A DNA stretch of 64,000 nt from NCBI GenBank assembly GCA_964016885.1, contig OZ024740.1, forward strand, positions 310,868,001 to 310,932,000, given 5' to 3'. This document shows positions 2,958 through 59,237 of the stretch, piece by piece. Origin of the DNA: Eledone cirrhosa. Lineage: Eukaryota. Positions within the stretch are counted from its first letter, which is position 1. Each line of letters starts with the position of its first letter. The notes under the pieces were generated by a model. The model saw only the letters and a list, made by a program, of their open reading frames with translations, searched no databases and had not been told where the DNA came from. The position numbers were made by a program, and so were the translations under genes.

Positions 2958-3290
<333 letters not shown>

Positions 3291-5474
3291 GGGATGTATG
3301 TGGGTTTCTGTGTGTGAGTGGGTGTAAAACTAAAAATGTCAATCCTATTTTCCTATTAATGGCAGAGATCCAATTTTTCTCGGTTTTCAGAATGAAATAA
3401 CGAATCTCAAACAAAGTAAAAGGCGATTTATTTTTCTTTATCTTTTTGTTGTCCTATTTATCGAAACGGAATTTTTTTTATCTTTAGATCTCCATATGAC
3501 CCAAAATGTTTTCAACCAACTGATATTATTGGATAACTCTTGAAACATTACCGAATATAGAAAATATTTTCAAATATAGATACCAATAAATTTTCTAATT
3601 CTGATCTGTTCGATAATAGACATATCTCAATCAAATCAGCTTTATTTATTCTTCCTTATATTTATAATTTTTTCTATGATAACATTTGTAAACAATTGTT
3701 CCATGCTTTAACATTTTAGTTTTCTCTACGAAATTAGATAGGAAAATCTTATTGGCAATACTGTGGCTAAACGGGGTTAAATATATAACAGAATTTACTT
3801 ACATGAATTATACTAAAGTAAGGAAATACTAATCGAGTTACCGGGCTATTCCTTCAATTTCTCATCTAACATACAGATTTAGATTAATCCTTGAATTCTC
3901 CATCTAGTATACAGATTTAGATTTTCTTTAAATACTTAAACCTCTCCAAGGCATATTTAAATCCGCTTTAAAAGTATAAACTCCCCCAAGGCAGAAGATA
4001 TAAATGCACTACGAGCTGAATAAATAAAATGTTTTCATTCCAAATTGAAACATTATTAAAATTGATTGCACCTTATATTAAATATGTTTGTGTATAGATA
4101 AATTTGGTTTAATACTTATGAGTTAGATATGTCGTGATATGAAGCTGTCATTATTGTAACATATGCCTCGTTTTCTTAGAGTAGTTTCCCAAATACAACT
4201 GAATCTTACCCAAGCGAAGTTGGTTTACTCATATGTTTCCTGAAGTATGAGTGATGTATCTATGATTTGTGATTAAATTCTTTACACCTAACTCGGTATT
4301 TAATACAGATAATTTCCTCATAGGATACTTAAAGGATGTTTAATTGTAACTTAATTAATTGTAATCATTCTTTTGCAACATATACCTAATGAAATTTTCA
4401 TCATTCACGTCCTCGCTGTTCAGAATAGTTTTAACAAAAGTTAGCATCACACACGGCAGACAACTACATCTAAGGTTATTAGTACAATGCTATTATCCAA
4501 TCACCCGATGAAGAGATTAATGACATAGCTAGCAATTCCAAAGCATGGTAGGAGACCCTTTCATTTGCTTAAAGAGTGTGCTGTAGAGTTTGTCAGCGTA
4601 ATCCTTACAATATTGCGTTTACCTAACAGAACTAGATAGGTTTAGGCTACGCTTTCTATAACAGTAGAGGTGAGGGTAAGCTGTCTGTTTTGTTTGGGTA
4701 GGACAAACACTTACTAGACTATATATAACAGTAAAGTAATAGTCTTTTACGATAGTAACAGTAGATCAACGAAATTATAGAACAATGAACTAACACATAA
4801 ACTAACTCCATTAGCTTACCTGGGTAACACCGAAGTCATTAGAAACATTGAACAGTTCTTTACTTATATTCGCAATAATCCATTGGTGAGATTTTATTCC
4901 CGGCTGCACACAAAATTATTACTGAGACGGATTTACCTCTATTCAAGTGTCTATTATCCGGCGTATTCTAAAGTTGCTGACATTGTTAACAATACAATGG
5001 ATACGAGGTTTTGTGATACTTTCTGGGGTCATATAAAGGTGGATTGCCTTGTTTATAGTCTAAATGTGCATGTTTACTCGTTTTAGTGTATGCTATAAAA
5101 TAATGTTCATGATAATAAATAGAAGTAGTCAAATATTATTATGATACGGTTTCGCTCTACAAATGTAGTTGAATAGGCTTTCTCTTAATGCATTCACTTA
5201 AGAGATTTACATGAAGAAAAGCATATAGTTTCCGCACTCTCAATCTATAATTTCATTTGTTAATTCCTATATAATATAGCAACTGATACCATTACAAACT
5301 ATCAGTGTCCAAGATGCAGAAGCGCGACAAAATTTTCAAGAATTTATAGCGCACTATATTATTAAGAAATTGAATGTAACAGCTTCTCTATGCTTCAAAT
5401 AACTAAAAAACTCTTTTAAAATATCCTAGTTATATATATTCTTTTAATTATTTGATTGTCAGAAACTTAGAGTC

Positions 5475-5636
5475 TCGGACAAAATGCTTTGCAGTATTTG
5501 TTCTGGTTCTTGACTTTCGGAGGTCAACATTGCCTTTGGTCGATAACACGAAAAACCAATCAACCACTCTGGTTGATCTGATCAACTCTCCCTATCACAA
5601 GTTGCTGGTCTTGTTCATAAATTAGAAACAATTATT
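5475..5636 (+). mobile_element. decayed copy of the Nin-like tRNA-SINE
   Basis: GAGGTCAACATTGCCTTT..GGTCGATAA..TTGCTGGTCTTGT..TTAGAAACAATTATT matches the family at 53380-53560. Confidence 0.6.
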
Positions 5637-5816
5637 TTACTAATATCAATTATTGTATTGACTGCATGCTGAAGCACTTTCTACAATGATCGTTACACAC
5701 TCAATAAATACTTTAGTCTGCTACTGATATAAGATATTTCTGTGTATCGTTTAGCTACGTTACGTAATACGACGAAATATAATGCACTGTTTTACAGTTA
5801 TAAATAAACGTATCTA

Positions 5817-5872
<56 letters not shown>

Positions 5873-6179
5873 AACAAGTAGGACTCCGACGGCTGAGCTC
5901 AAGCCGTTTCGACGGCTAATTCTGGACATCTTACCACATTTCCTTACCACATTTCCTTCGTTATATATATATATAACGAAGGAAGATTGGTAAGGAACCA
6001 GATGGACCATAACGCACCAGAGTACTCAATAATTAGGGTAGTAGAGTGGGTAATAGGAAAATGTTTGACCCCGACAGCAGAGCTCAAGCCGTTTCGACAT
6101 TGGTGTTGGTTGCTTAAAGCGTCCGTATGCGGTAGGCCGTTTGAGCACTCGATGCTCTCATAGAGCAGAGTATGATATC

Positions 6180-6454
6180 ACAGAAAAAAAGAGAATCAGT
6201 GTTGCGACGAATGGAATTTATTGGACATATCACAATCGTTTCTCTGGCAACCAGCTCGATGCACGTTCGATGTGATGATCGAACCTCACTCTGAAAATCT
6301 GCTTCGTAGAATCAAGACGTATCTGAGGATCTTGCGATTTTCAGAGTCAGGTTCGATCATCACATCGATCGTGCCTCGAGCTGGTCGCCAGAGAAACGAT
6401 TGTAATATGCCCAATAAATTCCATTCGTCGCAACACTGATACTCTTTTTTTCTG

Positions 6455-23162: not shown

Positions 23163-23356
23163 GTATACTCAGCCAGTCTGTTGAACGGTTGAAAATATAG
23201 AGTATTTTTCTTAAATACACATCAGCTGAGTAACTTCATTTGCATACCGAGCGAAATACAGTTGGCCTTGCCGAATATTAAAGATAAAATTATAATTTTA
23301 TTTCTCGCCGTAGCAGTGCTGATACATAATATAAGTATGCCCACGTACATATATAT

Positions 23357-39198: not shown

Positions 39199-40505
39199 TG
39201 TATGTGTGTGCATGAGTGACGTTGCTCATCAAAAACCGTGAGCGCTAGCATTTTAACGTCTCTGAGACGTTTAATTCGAATTTGTTCAGGAATAGAAGAG
39301 TGATTGCAATATTATATCAGTGAAGTGGTTAGTGATTGGATAGGTCTAAGCTGTCATATTTACATTGGACGCTGTTTTAAAATATTTGTCCATATATCAG
39401 TGCATATTTTCTGTGTTTTGTTGAATGTACGAAAGAGACTGAACACGAAATAACAGAAGGCAGCTCATCCATATACAAAAGTGTTAGATTCAGGATTGAC
39501 AGTTAGTATACACTATAGTTAATCAGGTATATGAAATAGTGTAGTTAATACATGTTCTGACAAGGAGTATCTAATCCAAGATATAAGAGAGAAGAGAGTG
39601 CTAGAATTCAGCGGCTAGCGTTCTCAAGCAGGATACAATCAACAGCTTTATTGATATCAGGAGCAACGATATTGCATTCACTGAAGGATGATGAACAACT
39701 GGGGAGAATAATTTGATAAATCTGACATTCCTAACAATGCTGCCAATCTGTGAGAAGCGGGAAATTCCCCGAGATGAATGCAAAATTTATTTATAACAAT
39801 ATATTATATGTGTGATAAATACAATTACTTCTTTAGAACGTAGGTATCCTGTTCAACAATCCTGTGAACCAAGAGCATTATCTATTTTAAATTAATTTCA
39901 AAGAAACCTTGTTTGTGAGTGCATTAAACTTCTTCCAATGTTGGAATCATTAATATCACTGAATTGAATATAATTTGGTCTTGCTAGAATATTTTCGTAT
40001 TATTAAGCAAGCAAATAATTGCGAATTTATCAACATTCGCTTATATTCTCTAGGGTTTTCAATAGTAACTTGCATTTATTATTACCTGATTTATAATATC
40101 TGACATTTATAGGCATGAGATTTTCTTTCTCGTTGCGCTGAGCAACGAAAAAGGTGAAAGAGGAAACTACGGTGAAATAGCATTGGACGTGAAATATTCT
40201 GTGATTCCTATTTATTTGTCAATAAAATTAAAAAGACTGATATTCTAATTACTCTACGCAATTTTTGCTGACACTATTTGTTGTAATTTTAAGTTTTATG
40301 TAAACATAATTAGCATATAATACTAAAATAAGATTGAAATATATGAATTTAATAACAATACTTAAACTTTTGTGAAACATTATTCATACGGACATCAACA
40401 TTCTAAATGTATTGCATATATAGATTTGCAGGGGCTGCTTAAAATGACTATAAAATATATATACATACACACATATATAAATATATATATATATACGCAC
40501 GCATG

Positions 40506-40539
<34 letters not shown>

Positions 40540-40540
40540 A

Positions 40541-41000
40541 AATAGAATTAAAATTTAGCTTCAGGCATAGCTGTATACAGATATGTATTGGAATTTCATA
40601 TTTCTAAAGAAATACGGTATGTTTAAAATAAACATTTAGAGATCCGTAGCTATGCCAAAACACCACCGGCTAACGCCGTCTGGCGGTGTCCAACAGAAGC
40701 AAGGGGTACAATCGCCGATATCTGTATACAACTATGCCTGGAGCTAAATTCTAATTCTATTCACAGACGAGAAAACCATATATTCTCGCCTGTTTTCAAA
40801 GTCCAGCAGTTGCAAGAGTGGAAGGGATCGTCCTGATGAGGACCAGTTCAGTTCGAAATGTGCATCGGTGTTTGTCAATCCTTGCTTCTGCTGAACACCA
40901 CCAGATGGCGACAGCCGCTGGTTATTTAGCATAGCTACGGTTCTCTAAATGTTTATTTTAAACATATCGTATTTCTTTAGAAATACGTAATTCCAATACA
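40541..41000. mobile_element. retrozyme-like non-coding element: permuted 282-nt monomer (+) and antisense partial copy
   Basis: 40584-40719 is inverted to 40864-41000 and 40541-40584 is inverted to 40718-40761; homologue at 57185-57520. Confidence 0.75.
40829..40870 (+). ncRNA. type I hammerhead ribozyme motif
   Basis: CGTC-CTGATGA-GGAC cagttca GTTC-GAAAT-GTGC-ATC-GGTG; all three stems pair (two G-U in stem I). Confidence 0.8.
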
Positions 41001-41011
41001 CACACATACAC

Positions 41012-41059
<48 letters not shown>

Positions 41060-41078
41060 TGGCGGACTGGCCAGGTTG

Positions 41079-41203
41079 CTGATGATTTCTCACGAATGAA
41101 ACAGTTCTAGTCCTGTAGAAGCTTTTCTATATTAAAACATTATACTCTGCTATGTATTGAGTACCTTACTTTCTGTGGTTACCCCCGATTGAACCCGGAA
41201 TAA

Positions 41204-41207
<4 letters not shown>
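41079..41207 (+). mobile_element. solo Naiad-like PLE terminus with hammerhead core (41079-41122)
   Basis: homologous to the reverse complement of 24575-24708; CTGATGA tTTC tcac GAAt GAA-ACAG..CTGT-A; ends in (TA)n. Confidence 0.75.
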
Positions 41208-41246
<39 letters not shown>

Positions 41247-42415
41247 CCCTTATCAACTCCGCTCTGGATTTTCTTAGGTTTTTATTTATTTATTAGGACA
41301 ACTATATGAATATATGTGTATGTGTATGCTAAATGTAAACAGAAACAAAAAAGCAAACAACTCAGTACAATAAGAGATATATTTTAACCCTTGATATAGT
41401 AGGAAAAGAGTCTTTACGTTCCGGACACTAGAAGAAAAGGAATATTTATGTCTTAAAAAGACAAGATTTACTAAACAAAGTCGATATAGAAAAGTCCCAG
41501 ATGTACCATGCCTTTTTTCTAATCAAATTCTACTGTTATATTTTGTTACACATGACATTCAATATCTCGCTCATTTGGGGCTATGGATCTCTAGAATCAA
41601 TTCAGTACCACATTCATCTTAACCAAGTAAGCTATCCCAACATACATGTTAGTGTTTTATTTATCTTTCCATCTACTGGGGTAAATAACCTAGCAAAACG
41701 GATACTTTATAACAAGAATATTGTTATAATAGCCATGTTCTTGTTATAATGAATGCAATTTTATCATTTTCTCCGAGGATCCAAATATTACTAGATTCAC
41801 ATAAGAGATTATACTTTATAATAATATTTATATATATTTGTAATGGATTTGTGAGCGAATTCTTTCGCAGAAGCAATTATAAGAATGATATAATTTAACT
41901 CCATCTCTGCTATGTGCGCTTATGTAAGAAATTATTATACAATTTCAGAAAATATCCTATTGGACATAAAGGAAACAGAGGTTAATGTTCAGATTAATTT
42001 TAATTTGTGCTTTTAATACATCACCACGAAGATTTCGTGGTGTAATGATTCTCAACTTCTCATTTATGAAATTATTTTTGTATATTATATAGATAGATAT
42101 GTTAGGATAAATGATTGGCCTCTAACTTGATGTTTCGTATTCTCTTCCCGTCACTACAGTTTGTATAGCTACGGTAACTCATTCACCAACTCTAACGGTA
42201 TATAAGCTATGTGGCATAAATCGCAACTGTCAGCTCTATGGACTAGTAATTCTTTGGGGGATTTTGATTCACCTCCTATCATATAGAAATTAAGTCACTA
42301 GCACTTTTCTGATTTATAGTGGGGCGGAAGGGACATTTGCCCCAGGACTCTTCATCAGCTGGGTCCCGTTCGGCAGGGTTTGGGCCTATAAAATAGATGT
42401 ACCCTGGAACTACCA

Positions 42416-42504
<89 letters not shown>

Positions 42505-43084
42505 TTTTAACTACATTGAAATGTAGAAAGTGCACTTAGAATGAACGTGGTCATATTTTTTCATTTAATATCTGTATGAATAACTTGACAATTCCAATTA
42601 TATGCACCAGGCCGACTTTGAAATGCAAACTTTACTGCGTATTTTATTTTTATTTTGTGTGTGTATGATAGACCCCGCGCCCAAGTTCTAAATCCAGCCC
42701 TGTCTGTGTCCACGGGTAACGACATACCAATATTGGAACTGAAAGAAAACTTAAACCTCTCCTTTTTAAGAAATACAACAATGTATGTATAATTAATTCG
42801 GCCTTATTATATATACTCTGACTCTGCAGATATAAATCTTCTAACATAAATCCTCTGAACTGTAATGTGTGCTCTAGAACAGTTCATCTCGTGCGTAGGC
42901 ATGCATCACCAAGTGGATATTTTTCTGTACTAATTTGAATTTTAAAAAATAATCGATATAGTTGCCTATAAATCGATATAGTTACCTATAATTAAGACAC
43001 GCACACAAACACATTGTGTATATATAAATATATATATATTAGAATATAAATATTAATAAAATAGATGTTTTTTTTATCAATTAC

Positions 43085-43129
43085 ATTTTATTATGCATAT
43101 TTCGGATGTACGTGCTCATCAGACAAAAT
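43085..43129 (-). ncRNA. type I hammerhead ribozyme motif
   Basis: ATTTTGT-CTGATGA-gcacgtacatcc-GAAAT-ATGC-ATA-ATAAAAT; same family as 56808 and 57980 but with a short, mismatched stem II. Confidence 0.7.
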
Positions 43130-43389
43130 ATAATGATACATGACATACCCTAAGATGTTAAATCGTTAAGATTTAATCAAGGTAGTGATTAACCTAAGAG
43201 AAAATTTAACATCTATACCCTAATAATGAGAAAATGCGAAAACGTAATAAATTCAATAGAGAATGTGTGAGTAAGCACTCTACGGTGAAAAAAGGTTTAC
43301 CGTAGAGTGCTTCCAATCTACTGTAAAACTCATTCTTTGATATACTCATTGAATTTTGTTTAACTCTTCAATATACTATATATATATGT

Positions 43390-44446: not shown

Positions 44447-46080
44447 AGGGTGTTAAAGTTTGCTTGAAGCATTGTGAAATGTGTAAAATACGTAGTTAAG
44501 AAAGCCACAACAATGCAGAGGGAAATCTCGAGGTAGGAAGTGAATGATAGATAGGAGAAACAGGAGAAAGTGAAAATTGAGAGAGACAAAGATGAAAACA
44601 AAACAAAGGTAGAAGGGTTACCGTAGTGGAGATTTAATCCCAATATTTCGGGCTCACGCCCATCAACGGGGGAAAGTTCCAAAAGGGGGGGAACAGGCCA
44701 AGCGGAGAAAGTTGTGATGTCGTTAAGACAGGAATGCCGTTATGGGAGAAAATTATTTAAAATTTAAACGAGGAAAAGAATGCGCGTGCGCGTGATAGGC
44801 TGTGGCAAAAGCTACTGACCAAATGGGTTAAATCAAGAGGGTGCGCTAGCGTGTGAAAGCCGTAAAATATGTGTGTGTAAATATATATGTGTGTGTAACT
44901 GTGTGTGTATAAGTGTAAGTGTGTATATGTGTGAGTGTGTGTGTGTGAAAGATAGTGGGCTGTAGAAGCTGGAAATCAAAGGGTATGAAAGGTGGTAAGT
45001 TGTAAAACATGTGTGCGTGTATAAATATAGATGTGTGTGTGTAAGCGTATGGGTATACATGTGTGTGTAACTGTGTGTGTATATGTGTGAGTGCGTGTGT
45101 GTGTGAAAGATAGTGGGCTGTAGAAGCTGGAAATCAAAGGGTGTGAAAGGTGGTAGGTTGTAAAAACATGTGTGCGTGTATAAATATAGATGTGTGTGTG
45201 TATGCGTATGGGTATGCATATACGTGCGTGTGTGTGAAGATAGCAGACCGTAGGCTGTGAATGGTCACTATGGTTAAGTTAGCCATGTCAGCTCATTTCT
45301 CTCAGCCCGGTTGTTAAGTGGGGGTCTGAGGTTCTTAATAACAAGTGCTTCCTTTATCCTTAAGGATCCGATGCTGCGTTCAGTCGCTAGGACTGTGACC
45401 AAGGGTCTACCCTGTGGTTTTCCGCATTTAAGGATGTGTTTACGGAAGGAAGATGCGTTGGTGTTGATATGTTCCTTAATACGAACATGTAGAGGTCGGA
45501 TGGTGCTACCTATGTAAAACTTGTTATATTTATCGCATTGAATCTTATATACGACATAGGTGCGTAGGCAATCTGCCCCCCGTATCGGGCAGTTGCTGAG
45601 GGAACACGTCCCATCTGACTCGTCGGGTTTGCTGGAGAGGCATCTTCGCAGCGAAGGTCCTGTGTGGGCCAAATGTATGTCAAGTCCCTCCGTCCGTATG
45701 GCCCTGCGGATGGCGTTCGTGGTATATTCACTCAGGTGGGGGATTTTAAAGAAGCACCTGCTTTTATTTAAGTTTCTAGTGGGTGTCTGTCTATTGGGTC
45801 TGGGGTCTCTAATTCCGTTAATCAGTCGCTTGGGATAACCATTAGATCTGAGTAGATTACGGAATTGCGTGGTATGGGTGAGACCACCCATCGGGTCGCT
45901 GCATCTGTTAGTGATCCGTGTCAGTTCATTTAGGACATAGCCTCTCTTAGCGTTGTTGGGGAGGGCTGAGTTGTAATGCACAAATAAGTCCTTGCACGCT
46001 GCTTTGCGGTAGAAGGTGGTGTTTATGTCTCCTTCTTCCGAGATGTTGATACGAGGAGGGCGAGTGACCCGTCTTCTCCT
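44445..46080 (-). mobile_element. 5'-truncated Penelope-like element (possibly Nematis-type) between (TA)n tracts
   Basis: open thumb-linker-GIY-YIG frame, 3' UTR with an internal duplication, and a degenerate hammerhead at 44638-44673. Confidence 0.85.
45274..46080 (-). pseudogene. PLE RT thumb, Cys linker and GIY-YIG endonuclease (open frame, no real start)
   Basis: [64 protein letters not shown]. Confidence 0.92.
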
Positions 46081-53760: not shown

Positions 53761-53817
53761 GTTAGCTAAATTTCTATACATATTGTATAAAGCTATGCTC
53801 GAAGTGAAATCTTATAT

Positions 53818-53895
<78 letters not shown>

Positions 53896-53899
<4 letters not shown>

Positions 53900-54408
53900 A
53901 AAGAATAGAGGTGTAATACACAAGTTATTATATATTGGTAAACGGAATAGAAAATGCTGACAAATTGTTCACAGTTGAAAAATGGTTTAATTAGGAATAA
54001 AAGAGTATTAGTAATTGTATGGGTTAGTATTCAGTTGTGGTTTTAAGTTTTTAAGTTTTTACCGGTTGCGCATTTCTAAATGCTGTTCAAAAATAATTTT
54101 GAGATAGAGTGTCCGTGTTGTTTGCTCTGATCTGATTAGTTTTGGGAATTCTACCTGTTTTTATGTTAAAAAAAAGTGGCTCCAGCGCTACTTGGTGTTT
54201 GCAAAAATTCTTGTGGTCAAAACAATTTTGATTGGTCGGTAGAGGTCATGTGAATAAAAAAATTGGTTTTGCGCCAAGATTGAGAAATGACTCTTTTACA
54301 ACAAATATGTGTGTGTGTGTGTGTGTGTGTGTGTAGTAGTAGTAGTAGTAAGGTGTTTGATGTTGTGATAATGGTTAGCAGGGATGTCTGTCAAATGGCT
54401 ATTAAGAT

Positions 54409-54479
<71 letters not shown>

Positions 54480-55583
54480 GCAGAGTAATTCGTGGTAGCA
54501 GGGATGGTCAGTAAGAATGTGTCTGTAAGCAATGGGGGGGTATTTTAGCATGTCAAAAGATATTTTTCAGCTTTTGTCTTATACGGAGAAGTGCGTGTGT
54601 GTCTGTGTGTATAAGTCTCTTTGTATGTTAATGTACGCGTGTGTATATGTGTGTGTGTGTGTGAGTGAGAATGTGTGTGTGTGGGAGGGGCCAGTATTTT
54701 TTCCCCCTGGTAAAATGGTGTACATTATTCGATTTTTTCAGTAAAATCGGTTCTCTTAATAGAACATCAAAAATCTTAACAATAAAAGGTGTGAAATGAT
54801 ATTCACTATATATATATATATACACATACATATATTCACTATATATATATATATATATACACATATATTTTTTTGTGTTGCACCATAGAGCATGTGTGTT
54901 TACGTATGTCATTGTGTTTATATGTGGGTAGAGATGTGTGCTGATGTAGGTATGTATGTTGACGTGTGTATGTTGTGGGTTCGTCTTAGGGAGAAGTGTT
55001 TAGACGGGATCCTTATTTGTTTATGAAGTAAGATTCCTTGCTGATGCGCTGGGTGTGGGTGGCATTATCTTTAAATTTGTAGAGGGGAAAGATTCTGAAG
55101 TTGGGATGATTTTGGGCGGCACAGGTATCAATGTGTTCACTCAGTGGTATTTTCCTGTATTCCCGTATTTTAATTTGGGATCTATGGACAGTCATGCGTT
55201 GGCAGAGGCTGGTTTTTGGTCTGGCCTATGTATTGTTCTCGACAGCCTGAGCAAGTTAATACATATATTAGATTTTCCGATGCACATGTGAAATTGTGTT
55301 TTACTATAAAACGTTGTCCTTCTTTGAAATAGAATTTCGAACCCTCTATTAGGTTGATGCAAATGCCACAGTTGGGTCTATCGCATTTTTTTACTGTGGG
55401 TTTCGTTATTGTGGTTGGCAGTACTTCATTAACAAATACGGACCCCGTCTAAACACTTCTCCCTAAGACGAACCCACAACATACACACGTCAACATACAT
55501 ACCTACATCAGCACACATCTCTACCCACATATAAACACAATGACATACGTAAACACACATGCTCTATGGTGCAACACAAAAAA

Positions 55584-55615
<32 letters not shown>

Positions 55616-55764
55616 GTGAATATATGTATGTGTATATATATATATAGTGAATATCATTTCACACCTTTTATTGTTAAGATTTTTTATGTTCTATTAAGAG
55701 AACCGATTTTACTGAAAAAATCGAATAATGTACACCATTTTACCAGGGGGAAAAAAATACTGGT

Positions 55765-55795
<31 letters not shown>

Positions 55796-55797
55796 TT

Positions 55798-55831
<34 letters not shown>

Positions 55832-55873
55832 CACACACACATACACACGCGTACATTAACATACAAAGAGACT

Positions 55874-55914
<41 letters not shown>

Positions 55915-56113
55915 ACTTCTCCGTATAAGACAAAAGCTGAAAAATATCTTTTGACATGCTAAAATACCCCCCATTGCTTACAGACACATTCTTACTGACC
56001 AATCCTGCTACCACGAATTACTCTGCTATACACACACACACACACTTATCTTAATAGCCATTTGACAGACATCCCTGCTAACCATTATCACAACATCGAA
56101 CACCTTACTAATA

Positions 56114-56155
<42 letters not shown>

Positions 56156-56655
56156 TTGTTGTAAAAGAGTCATTTCTCAATCTTGGCGCAAAACCAATTT
56201 TTTTATTCACATGACCTCTACCGACCAATCAAAATTGTTTTGACCACAAGAATTTTTGCAAACACCAAGTAGCGCTGGAGCCACTTTTTTTAACATAAAA
56301 ACAGTCTTGGCGCAAAACCAATTTTTTACATTCACATGACCTCTACCGACCAATCAAAATTGTTTTGACCACAAGAATTTTTGCAACACCAAAGTAGCGC
56401 TGGAGCCACTTTTTTAACATAAAAACAGGTAGAATTCCCAAAACTAATCAGATCAGAGCAAACAACACGGACACTCTATCTCAAAATTATTTTTGAAAAG
56501 CATTTAGAAATGCGCAACCGGTAAAAACTTAAAAACTTAAAACCACAACTGAATACTAACCCATACAATTACTAATACTCTTTTATTCCTAATTAAACCA
56601 TTTTTCAACTGTGAACAATTTGTCAGTATTTTCTGTTCCGTTTACCAATATATAT
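53896..56655. mobile_element. Neptune-like PLE 3' end with about 1.1-kb inverted repeats
   Basis: 53928-55028 is inverted to 55424-56655 (right arm has a duplication of about 120 bp at 56180-56424); left end in (TA)n. Confidence 0.9.
54987..55422 (-). pseudogene. PLE Cys linker and GIY-YIG endonuclease fragment
   Basis: KKCDRPNCGICINL, FTCASENLIYVLTCSGCREQYIGQT, HIDTCA, KESYFINK. Confidence 0.88.
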
Positions 56656-56755
56656 ATATATATAAACAAATATTAAAAAGGTTCATTGATTACTCATGAA
56701 TATAGTTTTACAAGAGATTCAAAGTACTCAACAAAGAAGTTTTCTGGAGTTATTA

Positions 56756-57520
<765 letters not shown>

Positions 57521-57545
57521 TATTTATATATATATATATATATAA

Positions 57546-57611
<66 letters not shown>

Positions 57612-57635
57612 TTATATATATATATATATATATAA

Positions 57636-57683
<48 letters not shown>

Positions 57684-57723
57684 TTCGTATTTCTAAAGAA
57701 ATACAGTTACACCTCTATTCTTT

Positions 57724-57843
<120 letters not shown>

Positions 57844-57979
57844 AAAGTTAAACAAGGTTCAATGAATAAATGAAAAATAAGTTTTACAATAGATTGGAAG
57901 CACTCAACAGATTTGATTTTCCAGAGTTATTAATATTAATTCAAAATATTAACAAAATAGATATTCTTGTGATCAAGTA

Positions 57980-58046
57980 TATTTTATTATACATATTTCA
58001 GAGGTACTGAGTTAAGTTCAACAGTACGTCCTCATCAGATAAAATA
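57980..58046 (-). ncRNA. type I hammerhead ribozyme motif, best-preserved copy of its family
   Basis: TATTTTAT-CTGATGA-GGAcGTACTG..CAGTACcTCT-GAAAT-ATGT-ATA-ATAAAATA; 8-bp stem I. Confidence 0.82.
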
Positions 58047-59237
58047 AGATGATGCATGACATACCCTGACATAGTAGATGGTTAAGTCATGGTAGTGAGT
58101 AATACATGACAAAACTCAATATTTATACTTTAATATTGAGAACATGAGAAAAATATATAATACATACAATAGAGAGGGTGCGTGTAATATAGCTTAAAAA
58201 ATACATGGCATCAATATAACAGTTAAACCATTTAAATTACTGAAGAAAGAGGAAAGAAAGGAAAACATAGAGGAAGACGTAGCTGATGGGATAATATAGC
58301 TAGTAGGTGCCTCGAAAGACAAATGAGAGATGATTAAAGAGAGAGAGAGACAAATGGGAATAATTTATGTTCAAGTTTATAGAGAATTATCCATATATAC
58401 AATATATATCTAAACTTATTTGGTTGACCGTTAATATTCAAAATATTTAATTTAAGTTAGTTCAGACTAATGAATAATATTTTAGGTTTTAAAAGTTAAT
58501 AGGTATCTGTAATTATAATATAGTATACTATCAAGTTTAATTTCTAAAATTCAAATTTTATTAAATCAAATTTAAAGGATTTACGAACACGAGAAAGAAA
58601 ATATATAATGTTTTATAACCCCACGAAGGTAAACTTTACCAAAATTATTTATAATATTGACAACAGTTTATATAATATTATTTATAAAATAATTATAGTT
58701 ATAATTATTAAAGAATTTATGATTAACAATTTGAGTGCCTAAAGGATCAACAGGCCTAATAATTAAACTTAAAGAAGTCTGAATGTTAAATTATATATAT
58801 GTGTTAATCAAAACATATACAAGGATTATATTGTCTAAAGACTTAAGGTGATACCTTTCAAATACATAACATAATACAATAATACAATATAGTAAATAAG
58901 TTACTGAAAATATTGTTAAAAAATATTGTTAAAAATTAATGTTTTATATCAATTATTGTAAAAGGATCACTTAATTGATATATACTATAAATATATAAGT
59001 CAAAACTATATGAGTCCTAAGGATAAGGGCTAGATACAAAATAAATATAAAAATAAAAAGTGAAAAATAATGAATTGTTTGCGAAACTTAAAAATGCCCA
59101 ATATTAAAAATATAGTTTAAAATGTAATAGGGTTTTAATATATAGTAGACAATGTCAGTGAATGTGAAAAACCAGTTGATGGATGTGAATCCGAAATATA
59201 TAGAAATTAAATCTCTCCCCAGGTAACTCTATCTCGT

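Follow-up and report, generated by a model that had tools for sequence, protein, structure and literature searches.

At positions 40541-41000 of the 64,000-nucleotide stretch of DNA analyzed here (the window), a sequence carrying a hammerhead ribozyme motif lies head to head with an antisense copy, and the question that this locus raises is what kind of molecule was written into the genome there. An earlier note had taken the plus-strand sequence, 282 nt long, as one full and exact circular permutation of a ribozyme RNA, with an antisense copy that starts at the ribozyme cleavage site. Our analysis leads to a different answer. We consider it probable, at roughly 80%, that a non-coding hammerhead repeat inserted once at 40541-41000, as two arms that have since decayed, that the 282-nt span reflects a private 62-nt deletion, and that the insertion was likely written by a Penelope-type enzyme.

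Self-comparison of the window sequence resolved the locus into two arms, minus (40541-40719) and plus (40719-41000), set head to head between two microsatellites; their parts are collected in Table 1 with those of related copies in the window. As previously described, the plus segment is composed of tail, upstream part, hammerhead, and body with the expected ends, and in the minus copy the end of the body is joined to the tail, which is followed by (TA)n. Each arm is shorter than one unit of the family to which it belongs, and the plus arm is read here as having been copied past its own start point. Over its whole length, the minus arm is 91% identical to the family consensus. It is not an exact antisense of the plus arm, as the two are only 86% (body) and 93% (tail) identical, and for this reason we regard the insertion as old. 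An A-to-G change at 2 nt past the cut is present in both arms and, counting these two, in 5 of 120 readings. The arm-to-arm junction is spanned without differences by a public contig (X2, record 9, 40677-40787), whose sample may be the assembled one; at the deletion junction, which this contig also spans, it has 26 letters to one side, short of the 31 that our rule requires.

Table 1. Positions of the parts of the two-armed locus, its flanks, and related copies within the window
Feature	Position	Strand	Remark
Left flank, (TA)n/(CA)n microsatellite	40457..40540	.	
Minus-arm tail, 43 nt	40541..40583	-	long (L) 3' end of family; abuts (TA)n
Minus-arm body	40584..40719	-	from 1-3 nt upstream of predicted ribozyme cut to short-end position
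Tail at 5' end of plus arm	40719..40761	+	consensus 135-177
Junction of 62-nt deletion	40761..40762	+	consensus 178-239 absent; genome-unique
Remaining plus arm: upstream part, hammerhead, body	40762..41000	+	ends at short (S) 3' end
Type I hammerhead motif	40827..40872	+	core from 40833; predicted cut 40866/40867
Right flank, (CA)n/(TA)n microsatellite	41001..41056	.	
Tail copy in local inverted duplicate of the end of the 57-kb insertion	53769..53819	+	
Long-ended arm, 321-nt subfamily B, normal linker	57174..57451	-	hammerhead core from 57351
Short-ended arm of the subfamily B insertion	57456..57533	+	

We then asked whether 282 nt is the unit of this repeat. A genome search with the 282-nt segment returned 2,707 candidates; among the 40 that were scored, full-length matches other than the locus itself started at query positions 40-47 with a single exception (23), and none started at position 1. 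The loci that we fetched carry a linker of ~62 nt between the tail and the upstream part, and a 17-letter motif from this linker has 1,730 matches in the genome. Consensus units, built from 84 and 61 of 159 loci, measure 342 nt for subfamily A, which includes 40541-41000, and 321 nt for subfamily B, which includes the copy at 57 kb. Loci were picked by similarity or by exact motif and therefore favor copies in good condition; all sampled loci of subfamily B are from contig C1. Copies are ~10% from their consensus. After mismatch correction, we estimate ~3,200 unit copies, from a sample leaning to good ones, and the 342/321-nt repeat is present in thousands of copies dispersed over many contigs. 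A weak match (68%) to the linker and upstream part also lies in the window at 23184-23298 (minus strand), possibly from a very old relative.

Measured against this family, the plus segment is not a full circular permutation, since 62 nt (consensus 178-239) are absent between its tail and its upstream part. In the 3.0-Gb genome, the tail-to-upstream junction of the locus has one exact match, which is the locus itself, while the normal linker-to-upstream junction has 1,338. On these junction counts and the 342-nt family unit, we rejected 282 nt as a unit length. The 62 nt may have been skipped when the arm was copied, or deleted afterwards; same-strand skips like this one number 19 in 160 loci.

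The start of the minus arm near the predicted cut had been taken as a mark of cleavage. Its position is correct, in that the arm begins 1-3 nt upstream of the cut, and two of these nucleotides also belong to the start of the plus arm. As a signal, it does not hold up: across 254 arms, with both window loci left out, 6 of the 5' ends lie within 6 nt of the cut against 6.4 expected, and windows of 4 and 10 nt give 5 against 4.4 and 9 against 10.4. With 5' ends near the cut at background rate in the family, a cleavage mark was rejected, and a more fitting reading of the antisense copy is the inverted and 5'-truncated second arm that Penelope-type insertions usually have. That a 282-nt circular ribozyme RNA was reverse transcribed as an exact permuted monomer, its antisense copy marking the cleaved 5' end, is the account to which we give the least credence. 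The plus segment does join tail to upstream part, the minus arm does begin at the cut to within 1-3 nt, and the left edge of the deletion coincides with the long end of the family, so that a template jump in copying is possible. Set against this are the unique junction, of which the locus offers no second copy because the minus arm stops before it; the unenriched 5' ends; the presence in the minus arm of at least one base upstream of the cut; and the fold of the 282-nt form as a circle, in which stems I and II have a probability of 0.0 (z -3.05).

Next, we examined the hammerhead itself. In the motif at 40827..40872, stem I (40827-40832 with 40867-40872) is weakened by three changes, stem II occupies 40840-40854, and stem III is short and self-complementary. 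Rfam reported no hammerhead at gathering score in the window, nor at E≤5 in 40400-41300, and the motif call therefore rests on core sequence and covariation. The local minimum-energy fold of the 81-nt stretch is without a hammerhead (z -0.63). Across the family, the pairs of stems I and II form in 135-170 of 175 stretches, depending on the pair, and two-sided changes occur at the closing pair of stem I (C-G in 130 stretches, G-C in 18), at its pair 5 (T-A in 79, C-G in 61), and at three pairs of stem II. While these per-pair counts use all 175 stretches, the covariation alignment holds 70 of the 135 of equal length. In it, 92.9% of cells were paired, compared with 86.3% in shuffles and 18-48% in slid controls, and none of 500 shuffles scored as high; two-sided change affected 6 of 12 pairs, a count equalled by 46 of the 500 shuffles. 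The covariation reflects a few subfamily-level events, not independent changes in each copy.

The core and stems are kept in 110 of 204 copies, and when the consensus units are folded as circles, the structures are stable (z -7.5 and -7.3) and contain stems I and II. Stem III has one or two pairs, and its self-complementary loop can pair between two molecules in a duplex fold; axolotl motifs with a similar stem III are reported to cut efficiently only as dimers (PMC7229834). In the 342/321-nt family, the type I hammerhead is thus conserved, and the copy at 40827..40872 is a weakened one. Other hammerheads are found nearby. A fragment of a different hammerhead family (41057-41200, plus strand, core at 41079) shares the (TA)n tract after the locus, and this family is also found in loci L207, L211, and L220 and beside the array in L234 described below. 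A third family, whose hammerhead has a long stem II, forms an inverted pair at 56760-57090, with arms 94% identical, and has diverged copies on the minus strand at 57939-58065 and 43048-43153.

If the cut does not set the ends of the arms, the distribution of ends across the family may show what does. Of 245 pieces of at least 60 nt from 160 loci, 189 have their 3' ends at two fixed sites, which in subfamily A are 134 and 177 nt after the cut and thus 43 nt apart. The 5' ends are scattered across the unit, with no heaping in 20-nt bins. These end counts leave out 11-12 duplicate loci and L066, where one copy (L066:1097-1426) contains a small tandem satellite that grew out of 21 nt of the unit. 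Pieces span 0.2 to 2.3 units, and 88 of the 245 are longer than one. The earlier note had proposed a genome search for tandem copies, and many copies are indeed partial tandems.

Head-to-head pairs make up 76 of 177 clusters, including both window loci. In 43 of these pairs, both outer ends lie at fixed sites, and the ends are asymmetric: a short end is paired with a long one in 40 and with another short one in 3, and none has two long ends (binomial p 1.5e-9 for 40 of 43). The other 33 pairs have at least one end elsewhere. Both the locus at 40541-41000 and the 57-kb copy are of the long and short kind. A dinucleotide repeat flanks 51 of 97 short ends and 59 of 92 long ends (110 of 189), compared with 63 of 800 control stretches. 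The flanking microsatellites conceal target duplications.

These end features match those described for Penelope-like elements. Craig et al. 2021 (10.1101/2021.04.23.441226) report elements with a 5'-truncated inverted copy and a tail of 30-40 bp, usually at one end only. Frangieh et al. 2024 (PMC11167929) report that a Penelope-like protein in vitro acts on AT-rich DNA, where both strands are cut and extended, and that it uses two neighboring internal start sites, the interval between which forms the tail. Because of this match, we infer that Penelope-type machinery wrote the insertions of the family. In the proposed mechanism, a Penelope-like enzyme would nick both strands of AT-rich DNA, reverse transcription would begin, one start for each strand, at two neighboring positions inside the RNA that lie 134 and 177 nt past the cut, and the two cDNAs would stop at random and then be joined by their 5' ends.

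The genome does contain elements with RT plus GIY-YIG, some of them with similar minimal hammerheads. Downstream of its reading frame, one such family (L121, L122, L205, L206, L209, and L217) has a minimal type I hammerhead whose stem III carries a palindromic loop of four bases. The window itself holds a Penelope-like remnant with a GIY-YIG domain at 45274-45930 (minus strand), which starts in a (TA)n tract. No terminus like that of the family was found in the 51 GIY-YIG loci examined (150 scored of 10,596 candidates), and where Penelope fragments lie close to arms (L061, L122, and L138), the fragments have ends of their own. Small inverted-repeat elements in three loci (L093:2501-2847, L116:2816-3163, and L097:510-557) have a hairpin in common with consensus 63-109 (77-88% over 39-48 nt), and the element in L093 seems to have one longer end. 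It is possible that this hairpin is a recognition signal for one Penelope enzyme.

Given such ends, the copies might have no independent non-coding unit behind them and derive, as truncated pseudo-LTRs, from an autonomous Penelope-like element. All of the end features are Penelope-like, the genome contains autonomous elements that carry minimal hammerheads, and a derivation of retrozymes from pseudo-LTRs is put forward in 10.64898/2026.07.22.740005. We nevertheless consider this unlikely, as upstream of the hammerhead the arms enter another copy of the unit and not a reading frame, which is how 88 of 245 pieces come to exceed one unit. The circular units, with a GC content of 40-43%, have no stop-free stretch longer than 81 codons. 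The RT plus GIY-YIG frame that characterizes an autonomous Penelope-like element was found neither within nor adjoining the arms of the family, and protein matches are present in 12 of 159 loci, none of them adjoining the 5' end of an arm. The earlier note had named as grounds against itself a junction unique to this locus together with other copies that were all linear termini of Penelope-like elements; the junction is unique, and the other copies are more than such termini.

The window contains two further pieces that had been described as a diverged relative (57 kb) and a solo tail (53.8 kb). Both are present, and the first is a two-armed insertion of subfamily B. The tail, in contrast, is part of a local inverted duplicate and not an independent insertion: 53769-53895 is 96% identical to 57236-57110 over 127 nt, inside a larger local inverted duplication. 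The region 53769-57811 contains nested local inverted duplications, which pair 54155-55030 with 56304-55422 (86%), 53929-54282 with 56654-56302 (97%), and 53813-53916 with 57811-57707 (97%).

We then considered the RNA from which the arms were copied. Among unselected arms that reach the cut site, 35 of 40 run at least 12 nt past it. A cut linear monomer primed at 134 or 177 could give at most that many bases, and as the arms run past the cut, the template would have had its cut site closed. It is then either a ligated circle or an uncut multimer, and the data fit both; we place the circle slightly ahead. The kind of origin first suggested for the locus, a circular or concatemeric RNA, therefore survives, with arms longer than one unit and read-through of the cut in its favor, and what falls away is the 282-nt unit and the start at the cleavage site. 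On the circular route, the RNA is predicted to self-cleave at the hammerhead and the cleaved RNA to be ligated to a circle.

Sequence variants offer a further view of the template. Rare alleles are common to opposite arms of one locus in 126 of 967 cases (13%) and to successive units in 66 of 675 (9.8%), compared with 1,734 of 62,283 (2.8%) for arms of different loci, so that sharing within a locus is 3.5 to 4.7 times that between loci. This fits a single template molecule for both arms, and it can also be produced by later gene conversion or by a shared sub-subfamily. An RNA-editing scar was a candidate that we rejected, as the excess of T-to-C over A-to-G in a first count came from subfamily columns. 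Once these were dropped, no A-to-G strand bias was present (subfamily A, 161 against 165 T-to-C; subfamily B, 103 against 145).

Long arrays of the unit are scarce, with 21 two-unit motif matches genome-wide and one run of three. One array stands out, in L234 (G000:C2:83917500-83926500), where ~10 subfamily B units in a single orientation occupy 3131-6435 and end at the short end. One stem I change, seldom seen outside the array (4 of 105), is present in all 10 of its informative units, and the repetition of a deletion junction at a distance of five units marks a block duplication. This duplication and the local inverted duplications at 53.8-57.8 kb speak for a spread of the family at the DNA level, by satellite-like tandem growth and fold-back duplication, with the inverted arm a product of DNA repair. 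As an explanation of the family we find this very unlikely, since fold-back does not predict a pair of fixed 3' ends, one short and one long in each locus (40 of 43), or dispersal over many contigs, or microsatellite targets.

The L234 array could also act as a source, at G000:C2:83.92 Mb, of a strictly linear, uncut transcript of tandem genomic copies, which the same enzyme would insert with no circle and no need for the ribozyme. For one Penelope-like protein, PMC11167929 reports that in vitro it used mainly uncut RNA, that mutation of the ribozyme left insertion normal, and that reads ending at the cut were absent; read-through of the cut site fits a linear template as well as a circular one. 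The scarcity of long arrays speaks against a linear uncut template, as do the 5' ends, in which the predicted heap at the start of the template is unseen in 20-nt bins, and the hammerhead, whose pairing was kept through subfamily turnover and so calls for a function. We hold this account at somewhat less than even odds. We would give the same tentative standing to the full circular model, in which the family propagated as a self-cut, ligated RNA circle, which a dimeric Penelope enzyme, starting at two internal sites, copied into either end of a single DNA break, with the hairpin common to other two-armed elements serving as the recognition signal of the enzyme.

Overall, the family resembles a metazoan non-LTR retrozyme mobilized by a Penelope-like element; judged on sequence, it is of a known kind, and the copy at 40541-41000 is old and damaged. 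Mobilization of retrozymes by Penelope-like elements has been proposed (PMC7229834), and the co-occurrence described in 10.64898/2026.07.22.740005 lends it support. Passages of PMC10886601 and PMC6962438 contribute, beyond this, a tally of hammerhead motifs in a squid assembly. In the main texts of the mostly open-access literature that we searched, we found no description of the 342/321-nt family or of two-armed retrozyme insertions.

The family has the sequence features by which retrozymes are recognized, namely a type I hammerhead and non-coding, head-to-tail units of 150-450 nt with a GC content under 50%, and it shares these with the metazoan non-LTR retrozymes of PMC7229834, along with thousands of copies, partial tandems, and a stable predicted circular fold that allows the hammerhead. 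As in the axolotl motif HHR_Amex1, described in the same source as cutting well only as a dimer, stem III is very short and self-complementary. Unlike the retrozymes described there, the family is found mostly as dispersed arms of 0.2-2.3 units and not as long arrays, it is set apart by head-to-head arms with two fixed ends, and it is known from sequence alone.

It equally has the features of a Penelope-type insertion: variable 5' truncation with fixed 3' ends, an inverted truncated copy, a one-sided tail, and a microsatellite target. With the endonuclease-bearing Penelope-like elements of 10.1101/2021.04.23.441226 and PMC11167929, it has in common 5' truncation, partial tandems, an inverted truncated copy, a one-sided tail, and AT-rich or microsatellite targets, and it resembles the element of PMC11167929 in having a hammerhead upstream of two internal start sites, at ~100 nt in that element. 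It differs from them in being without a reading frame, in its 43-nt tail, just above the 30-40 given in 10.1101/2021.04.23.441226, and in its start sites 134 and 177 nt after the cut.

The closest comparison is with the vertebrate retrozymes of Li, Clavereau and Pollet 2026 (10.64898/2026.07.22.740005), which likewise occur as monomers, dimers, and few multimers, most families having few units, and for which the same parentage is proposed. Having one family hammerhead, 40541-41000 falls outside the definition of an active retrozyme used in that study, which asks for two consecutive units with complete hammerheads, while some other copies of the family have two or more hammerhead-bearing units. 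In that Xenopus study, the link to Penelope was drawn from co-occurrence and pseudo-LTR similarity; here, where no matching pseudo-LTR was found, it is drawn from the insertion ends. To a link that had rested on co-occurrence and likeness, the family adds a mechanistic footprint, consisting of two fixed internal start sites, one per arm, as seen in vitro for one Penelope-like protein (PMC11167929), and read-through of the ribozyme cut. Its value is limited by the age and decay of the family and by the equal fit of circle and multimer, and it yields a precise question: whether a Penelope enzyme starts at 134 and 177 and prefers a circle. If the circular reading is true, the dispersed two-armed copies would form a genome-wide fossil record of the proposed retrozyme route.
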